A stretch of DNA of 61,801 nt, counting the filler, from Platydemus manokwari (lineage: Eukaryota): the NCBI GenBank assembly GCA_037951405.1. It is 6 parts of 6 records of this genome, joined end to end, with 100 filler letters (N's around TTAATTAATTAA, not from the genome) between each part and the next. Parts side by side here need not be neighbours in the genome. Positions count along the whole stretch, not along the records: positions 1 to 9,247 come from JBBMOY011277761.1; 5 more parts are not named here. The stretch is one strand, 5' to 3'. Below the pieces are notes generated by a model. It saw nothing but the letters and a program-made list of their open reading frames with translations. It had not been told where the DNA came from and searched no databases. Below are positions 5,546-6,978 of this stretch, piece after piece (within the stretch, counting starts at the first letter, position 1; each line of letters starts with the position of its first letter). The position numbers and the translations under genes were made by a program.

Positions 5546-6978
5546 ATGAGAAGATTCGAGGTTTGTGATTACCTGTCTACCTACAATAATAAAGAAACTT
5601 GCTATACCTACTCCACAGAAGCACCGGTCGGCTTGCAATATCATGAGTATATGGAAATAAAAGCAAGAAAAGGCACCAGACACGTGCCTTTCGCAAATCA
5701 TTTACAACTGCCAAACAAACTTATATATAGTGGAAGAGGCAATGAACACATCCAAGCTGCTCTACTAACCTATACACAGATGCAAAAGTTGATAGAGATA
5801 ATGCCAGCTCTATAAAATCACAAACACTACAACACCTTAATTCTAATAGACCACTACCAATAGACCACTCACGGCCTACATTGCTTGAGTAGGGGAACCA
5901 ATTCATCGCTCACCTCATACCAGCTTAGAACTTGGAAACTATTATGAAAGAGTTGAACGAATAACTCTTCTAATTTAAGACGTACCAATAACAGTGGCAC
6001 TAGAAATGATCAAGAAGGAACAAGAGCCAACGGCGTACCCGATAACTAGAGGATTTGAACAAATCCCTCTCAAGACACTCGATGCATATGGGTCATTCAT
6101 GCAGCCAAATATATCACCAGAAGTGCAACTCGATATATTATACATAGCGGCATTCTACGTGGATACTTTAGAGATAATCAAGGAGAAAATTAAAATAGCT
6201 ACCATTTACTCCATTTCAATTCTCGATCAAACAGGGAAATTATTAATCAATTCGTTAAATACTTTTCGAAATTACGTCACACATATAGAAAAGACATCCA
6301 CAAATTAGAAAAAGGAAAACTAACTAACTAATCAATGGGATCAAGTAGAAGCATATGAAAAAATCAAGGAAATAATCGATCAAAAAGTCTTATTAGGCTT
6401 TCAAGTAGCAGACGTAATAAAAGCTCTAGCATTCCCTACCTACCGTATTATGGGAATTAAGGAGCTACCAAATGAAGAATTACTAAAACAAATATAAGGT
6501 GTATGATAAAACTCCCTTTAAACTCAAAAGGGTACCACAAAGTGTACTGGCCTACTCCTTGAAGAAAATCCACGAATTAGAAACCAACAACCAAGTGGAA
6601 CAAATAAAAGAAATTCACAACATTATAAAAATTCAATGGAGACCATCAGTGCACACTACTCAACTGATATCGGACTATGAATCAATCGACTTGGACGTTG
6701 GAGTAGTAGAAATCGAATTGGAAGGAGAAAATCTAGAGCCAATGTCAAAAAAGAGAAAATATGGACATCTCACAACTAAGAGGAGAAAAGCACCTTAATT
6801 GCCACCAACAAGTCTACGAACAATAATCGTAGATAATAAGAGATGGCACATTACGGCTCTTTTCTGCACTTGCGAAGAAGATTTAGACGAATTATGTCTC
6901 GACTTTAGCAATGCAGATTTTAAACAAGCAAGAGACAAACTTAAGCCTGACAACAAGCTATCAGAGAAAAAGAAGTGA
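5546..6978 (+). pseudogene. Decayed ~470-codon gene with REX4/ISG20-like DEDDh exonuclease fold (catalytic residues apparently absent) and basic NLS-like patch
   Basis: Joins ORFs 5546-5815, 5994-6308 (in frame through two stops to ~6497), 6499-6798 and an in-frame continuation to TGA at 6978. SISILDQTGKLLINSL..YVTHIEKTST..QVEAYEKIKEIIDQKVLLGFQVADVIKALAF..PFKLKRVPQSVL parallels the REX4 pattern RVSIVN..G.VVYDTY..VTDYRT.VSG..FEEVQKKV..LLKGRILVGHAL.NDLKVL..PSLKKLA..LL. KKRK...KRRK lies near 6750-6790. Confidence 0.55.

Follow-up and report, generated by a model that had tools for sequence, protein, structure and literature searches.

What use might a flatworm mobile element make of an exonuclease whose catalytic residues have all been replaced? 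The question is raised by a broken gene, here termed gene 1, that lies at positions 5546–6978 of a 61,801-nucleotide stretch of Platydemus manokwari DNA (assembly GCA_037951405.1; the whole stretch is referred to as the window), and in which a preliminary description had seen a catalytically dead DEDDh exonuclease carried as mobile-element cargo. How animal retrotransposons counter host RNA surveillance is largely an open question. The 61.8-kb window has a GC content of ∼20–40%, and its first scaffold (1–9247) carries gene 1 and a paralogue, gene 2. The 100-nucleotide (nt) linkers of N at 9248–9347, 21100–21199, 30185–30284, 40309–40408 and 52340–52439, each with TTAATTAATTAA at its centre, join the scaffolds artificially, and those on either side of them are not true neighbours.

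The exonuclease part of gene 1 occupies 6138–6639 on the plus strand, which also carries the rest of gene 1, the membrane gene, gene 2, the splice-acceptor-like sites and the 3′ region described below; its assignment draws on profile matches, alignment and the predicted fold of a relative. The motifs YIAAFY (6141–6158), GFQVADV (6396–6416) and NNQVEQ (6586–6603) are where they had been placed. When stops are read through, the piece at 5979–6494 has 11 protein matches among 1.84 billion representatives (best E-value [E] 2e-14), and ten of these are members of one family; the other, P0009, is an LVIVD-repeat protein, a false match that was removed. A profile constructed from seven relatives that lack the catalytic site, with the window excluded, matches the window frame with an independent E-value (iE) of 8e-39, and also matches ISG20L2 (E 2.6e-11) and ISG20 (E 0.013). 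Window pieces alone match neither Pfam RNase_T nor any Protein Data Bank (PDB) nuclease. Together with structure comparison of the relative's model, the profile matches bear out the proposed REX4/ISG20-type DEDDh assignment, both as sequence homology and as an RNase H-like fold that is predicted by way of the relative.

At the D-E-D-H-D positions (ExoI D-E, ExoII D, ExoIII H and D) the window has A, F, V, L and Q, such that all five catalytic residues are gone. The earlier claim that the acidic active site is replaced holds, as there is neither His nor Asp in either ExoIII register, but the register proposed for ExoIII was three residues late: gapless alignment to the following helix places LETNNQ (6577–6594), and not NNQVEQ, opposite H-x-x-x-x-D. 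The catalytic set is kept in four of 15 aligned rows (P0010, P0012, L001 ORF3, and P0007, which has Glu at ExoII), and P0020 likewise shows catalytic motifs; these complete relatives carry the DEDDh His and match RNase_T. The other 11 rows, including the window, are dead: the first Asp and the ExoII Asp are present in none of the 11, the Glu in two, and the last Asp in one of nine. The His position is Leu in the window and five relatives, and in several dead rows the last ExoIII position (4/9), or the residue just ahead of the ExoII position, is acidic. Structural columns are retained in 9–11 of the 11 dead rows, and non-catalytic motifs around the exonuclease core are kept too. A tree parts dead from complete rows; support for the split is weak (78/75), and long-branch warnings apply.

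The preliminary description had left it to intact copies to separate fixed substitutions from decay after insertion. Seven of the dead relatives are open frames of 435–609 amino acids (three more, P0002, P0005 and P0011, are partial), and all seven are without the site and share replacements; because these intact relatives lack it, the loss is older than the breakage of the window copy. On one view the missing residues are mere decay: a nuclease captured in an active state would have lost them and would serve no function. The window copy suggests this, but full-length relatives with open frames, structural residues, shared replacements and no site appear largely to refute it, and we consider it very improbable. 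The dead members are all without a Pfam match or a name, and pseudo-exonuclease genes of this kind thus escape annotation.

The window copy is itself a pseudogene: several stops and frame changes interrupt it. Its N-terminal part is disrupted by a frame change near 5815–5850 plus stops, the exonuclease domain by two stops in the same frame near 6306–6323 and a frame change near 6490–6500, and an in-frame stop (6796–6798) precedes the C-terminal module. The two exonuclease stops had been noted previously and are present in the window frame, but they probably mark a short out-of-frame stretch, because three other contigs of sequencing run X1 have small indels relative to the window on both sides of them.

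In front of the exonuclease is a domain (5546–6008) that had been missed, and which the family profile and models of the relative P0003 predict to have an AlkB-type 2-oxoglutarate (2OG)-oxygenase fold without the iron-binding histidines. The profile matches this part of gene 1 with an iE of 0.001 (5558–5845), and from 5820 it lies inside the 8e-39 match; the domain has no Pfam match. A double-stranded beta-helix core, together with an N-terminal strand and helix as in AlkB-type proteins, is present in the relative's model, and the HxD...H iron triad and 2OG-binding Arg residues are absent. With ligand columns mapped by strand order and standard motif positions rather than by superposition, the residue two before the Asp of HxD is hydrophobic in all 11 rows, the Asp is retained in 6/11, the strand VII columns contain one His among ten rows, and the last-strand Arg position is Glu in 10/10. 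We also note that a strand III His (P0003 residue 100 and its equivalents) is retained in 9/11 rows despite the lost iron ligands.

To the right of the exonuclease is a linker (6640–6795), acidic and then basic, and the region of the P0003 model that matches it (370–547) has a predicted local distance difference test score below 50. The KKRK (6748–6759) and KRRK (6778–6789) patches reported previously are present, but the argument that they form a nuclear signal is weak, as shuffled tails of the same composition often contain such patches (frequency 0.54 for the window). A small, beta-rich C-terminal module (6799–6978) was recognized by leave-one-out profiles, in which five of eight rows were equalled by no more than 2/300 shuffles and the window, weakly, by 7/300. 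This module is common to most dead relatives and is absent from the complete ones.

The nature of the carrier emerges from copies elsewhere. A total of 3688 contigs of run X1 align to 1–9247 at 80–100% identity, with all 30 bins covered and many variants; depth in this run does not measure copy number, and the window may itself stem from X1. The region belongs to a dispersed multicopy family, and the proposal of mobile-element cargo is upheld by this and by a relative that sits in a Ty3/gypsy element. Of 594 candidate stretches from a scan of metagenome contigs that used the complete clade, two were confirmed; these, L001 and L002, represent a single element and differ at 9 of 6568 bases. L001 encodes a 2356-residue protein with protease, reverse transcriptase (RT), RNase H, integrase, a second protease and ankyrin repeats, followed by two hydrophobic helices around an ectodomain (by eye), and so links the protease-RT-RNase H-integrase order to its own copies of the gene. 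Its accessory genes are, in order, a 486-residue dead paralogue, a 443-residue complete paralogue (RNase_T E 1.5e-11) and a 200-residue open reading frame (ORF); the dead and complete genes stand next to each other on the same strand, a tandem pair that the preliminary description did not include. The 200-residue ORF (L002 5974–6576) has a weak ubiquitin/SUMO-like match at its C-terminus (Pfam E 0.04–0.09). P0022, a second polyprotein of the L001 type, comes from a 27.7-kb contig, and complete relatives occur on contigs of 15–17.6 kb.

The window's own element is likely to be of Ty3/gypsy type too. The order of membrane gene, dead copy and second paralogue is that of L001, both cassettes have an A-rich sense strand, and both have splice-acceptor-like sites. 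Decayed Ty3/gypsy pol regions with 33–39% identity to L001 pol are present on two other scaffolds, at 56292–59104 and 13700–15955, both on the minus strand. Several observations speak against a gypsy carrier: scaffold 1–9247 contains no pol, with fragments on other scaffolds only; there is no long direct repeat or long terminal repeat (LTR) pair in window positions 2500–9247, L001 or L002, all of which are partial; between the window membrane gene and the membrane region of L001 and P0022 no similarity is detected; and the genomic context depends on one element, L001 and L002 being the same. The gene could thus be as described and its carrier a Polinton-like or other DNA element that acquired the cassette, and heavily decayed frames at ∼1000–2600 resemble, by eye, a Polinton-type DNA polymerase, with no Pfam match in three frames. 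However, a separate high-depth repeat lies between this stretch and the cassette, and given the agreement of the cassette with that of L001 and the gypsy pol fragments, we regard a non-gypsy carrier as quite unlikely.

Gene 2 (7319–7910), which had also been missed, was recognized by the family profile and tblastn and is a paralogue with the AlkB-fold domain only. The profile matches have iE values of 2.3e-8 (7319–7615) and 1.7e-6 (7605–7892), there is a frame change near 7605–7630, and the match stops just ahead of the exonuclease domain. A 3′ splice-acceptor-like site at 5525–5539, consisting of a pyrimidine tract and CAG with an upstream branch-like CTAAT, ends 6 nt before the gene 1 ATG, another at 7301–7315 ends 3 nt before that of gene 2, and an acceptor in L002 falls 1 nt upstream of the ATG of the 200-residue ORF. 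Of the five accessory ATGs, four have an acceptor-like site within 6 nt, compared to 6/164 and 3/285 of all ATGs (accessory ones included), and each accessory gene is probably expressed from its own spliced mRNA.

What, then, might the disarmed protein do? Our preferred reading, held tentatively and a little short of being probable, is that the gene 1 product is a non-catalytic RNA-binding adaptor that shields element RNA. Each accessory gene would be translated from a separate spliced mRNA, and the disarmed protein would bind instead of cutting: the dead nuclease groove may cap RNA 3′ ends, the AlkB barrel, with its invariant Glu in place of the last Arg, may read a methylated base, and the bound element RNA would be protected from host trimming and silencing. 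Exuperantia provides one example of a DEDD fold without a canonical site that has retained RNA binding. We make the proposal because the domains descend from nucleic-acid enzymes and because Maelstrom and EXD1, in the available text of two reports, combine a DEDD fold lacking the canonical site with retained RNA binding (PMC5408684, PMC7968707). Weighing against RNA shielding, the dead domains are no more basic than the complete ones (K+R 15–28 vs 25–33, partly reflecting shorter rows) and the basic patches are no commoner than in shuffles; moreover, both folds are taken from models of a relative with about 30% identity in the exonuclease part, and the AlkB structure match has only 5–12% identity, without residue-level superposition.

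Alternatively, the gene 1 product may bind proteins and not RNA. The poxvirus proteins C4, C10, A37, F11 and A51 are described, in the portion of the preprint available, as inactivated 2OG-oxygenase folds (bioRxiv 10.1101/2022.11.22.517515), and because such folds are protein-binding factors they favour a decoy or scaffold that occupies host partners of AlkB/REX4/ISG20 enzymes, or defence proteins, over an RNA shield. Foldseek matches include vaccinia C16 bound to Ku (E 1.9e-3), the dead clade has acquired a long disordered linker and the small C-terminal module, and the neighbouring ORF is the weakly ubiquitin/SUMO-like one; the descent from nucleic-acid enzymes and the retained motifs around the exonuclease core nevertheless point away from such a decoy, which we consider unlikely. 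The adjacency of dead and complete genes in L001/L002 suggests instead a regulatory partner that tunes or targets the complete nuclease, perhaps at the ends of element RNA or on small RNAs, but the pair is seen in one element only, gene 2 of the window has no exonuclease domain, and tblastn finds no complete nuclease copy anywhere in the 61.8-kb window, which makes this role improbable. Finally, one domain may have switched to a non-canonical active site, as proposed for Maelstrom, so that the protein is not wholly dead; the N-terminal Asp, strand III His and invariant Glu, should they cluster in space, and the extra acids near the ExoII and ExoIII positions would be consistent with this. As these acids are not invariant and the five nuclease positions in the window have neither acid nor His, we regard such a switch as distinctly improbable. 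Returning to the RNA-shielding adaptor, a broader and rather unlikely scenario would place it in a giant animal Ty3/gypsy lineage with a spliced accessory set like that of complex retroviruses, comprising an AlkB-fold reader fused to an ISG20-like nuclease, in active and disarmed copies, and a SUMO-like decoy. Together these would counter RNA-modification and small-RNA surveillance, the disarmed copy serving to guard the RNA of the element.

Accessory enzymes of LTR elements are already known, with nuclease ORFs in rotifers and AlkB ORFs in orchids reported separately, as active enzymes. The bdelloid rotifer Juno/Vesta LTR retrotransposons, and Terminons, have a DnaQ-like exonuclease, which in Juno/Vesta is an extra ORF after pol, but this ORF3 is RNase D-like DEDDy with catalytic residues reported intact, and the text examined mentions neither an AlkB fusion nor a dead/complete pair (PMC5408684); it is set apart from the DEDDh domain here by description rather than by direct alignment of rotifer sequences. 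Large Ty3/gypsy elements of Phalaenopsis orchids encode an AlkB (2-ODD) protein that, according to the sections available, binds RNA and is an active N6-methyladenosine demethylase close to plant ALKBH (PMC9289625), whereas the AlkB-fold domain here is far diverged, has no iron ligands and forms a fusion with a nuclease. The giant Burro gypsy elements of planarians resemble the present elements in their very large polyprotein bearing ankyrin repeats, their SUMO-like motif and their accessory ORFs, with no DEDDh or AlkB ORF in the text examined (PMC6431247). The Burro env, a fusion-glycoprotein homologue, sits in frame between gag and pol, unlike the membrane part of L001 and P0022, which follows the integrase and ankyrin repeats; the gag side of these two is outside the sequence seen, and a further env there is possible. 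KolobokD DNA transposons carry a DEDDh exonuclease as animal transposon cargo, but with a DDD/E transposase and, in the available text, a presumably active nuclease of Exuperantia/TREX/ERI1 type (PMC9587614). No DDD/E transposase is seen in L001, or by Pfam in those frames of the window that were scanned, the window's element being incomplete. The poxvirus proteins are likewise 2OG-oxygenase folds retained by a selfish element after catalytic loss, but of DNA viruses and with no nuclease fusion in the text examined. From the ISG20/ISG20L2/REX4 DEDDh 3′–5′ exonucleases (PDB 1WLJ, 7YW5) the gene 1 family differs in its replaced catalytic residues, the AlkB-fold domain in front and the mobile-element carrier. 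The words 'exonuclease', 'ankyrin' and 'DEDD' are absent from the main text of a report on env-carrying gypsy elements (PMC13524379), and we found no ISG20-like or AlkB-fused pseudo-nuclease in a retrotransposon in the literature searched; supplements, Repbase, Dfam and most subscription papers fall outside this search, and earlier annotation is possible. What sets the present family apart is the fusion of the two folds and a branch that has lost both active sites with the frame kept. With dead and complete copies side by side, one natural element offers a built-in control pair for comparing nuclease activity, RNA binding and partners.

Several other features of these elements are noted. In L001 (39–7109) and P0022 the gypsy pol is extended in frame by extra protease-like domains, of which L001 has one and P0022 two (by eye), and in both the integrase is followed by ankyrin repeats and a Cys-containing membrane protein; we did not find this post-integrase protease/ankyrin/membrane architecture in the literature searched. 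Between its accessory ORFs L001 has tandem duplications of 89 nt (8767–8944) and 62 nt (10577–10700), the former with a GC-rich core containing a small GAAA hairpin and no Rfam match. L002 has a purine tract followed by TG at 6985.

To the left of gene 1 is a broken gene (4443–5402, start approximate) for a probable type-I membrane protein, identified from its frames and hydrophobicity, with a hydrophobic start (by eye), an ectodomain and a C-terminal transmembrane helix at ∼5229–5330; its only Pfam match is weak (TMEM154, E 0.056), and it occupies the place of the L001 membrane region in the element order. To the right of gene 2, repeat and depth data delimit a non-coding, multicopy 3′ region (7911–9247) with short tandem repeats at 8063–8150 and 8178–8241, and a pattern search found no polypurine tract after gene 2. 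Very high-depth repeats at 3400–4635 and 1–72 flank or interrupt the element; 3400–4451 has no Pfam match in six frames, and a primer-site-like TGGCGCCC is seen by eye near 3872. Elsewhere in the window, a HERC2-like host gene that contains RCC1 repeats together with a HECT domain has several exons and compact introns (21300–28000, minus strand), and there are a non-LTR-like RT fragment with a weak RVT_1 match (30338–30994), a C-terminal exon of an AGC kinase (34945–35277) and a cyclic-nucleotide-binding exon (43242–43484).
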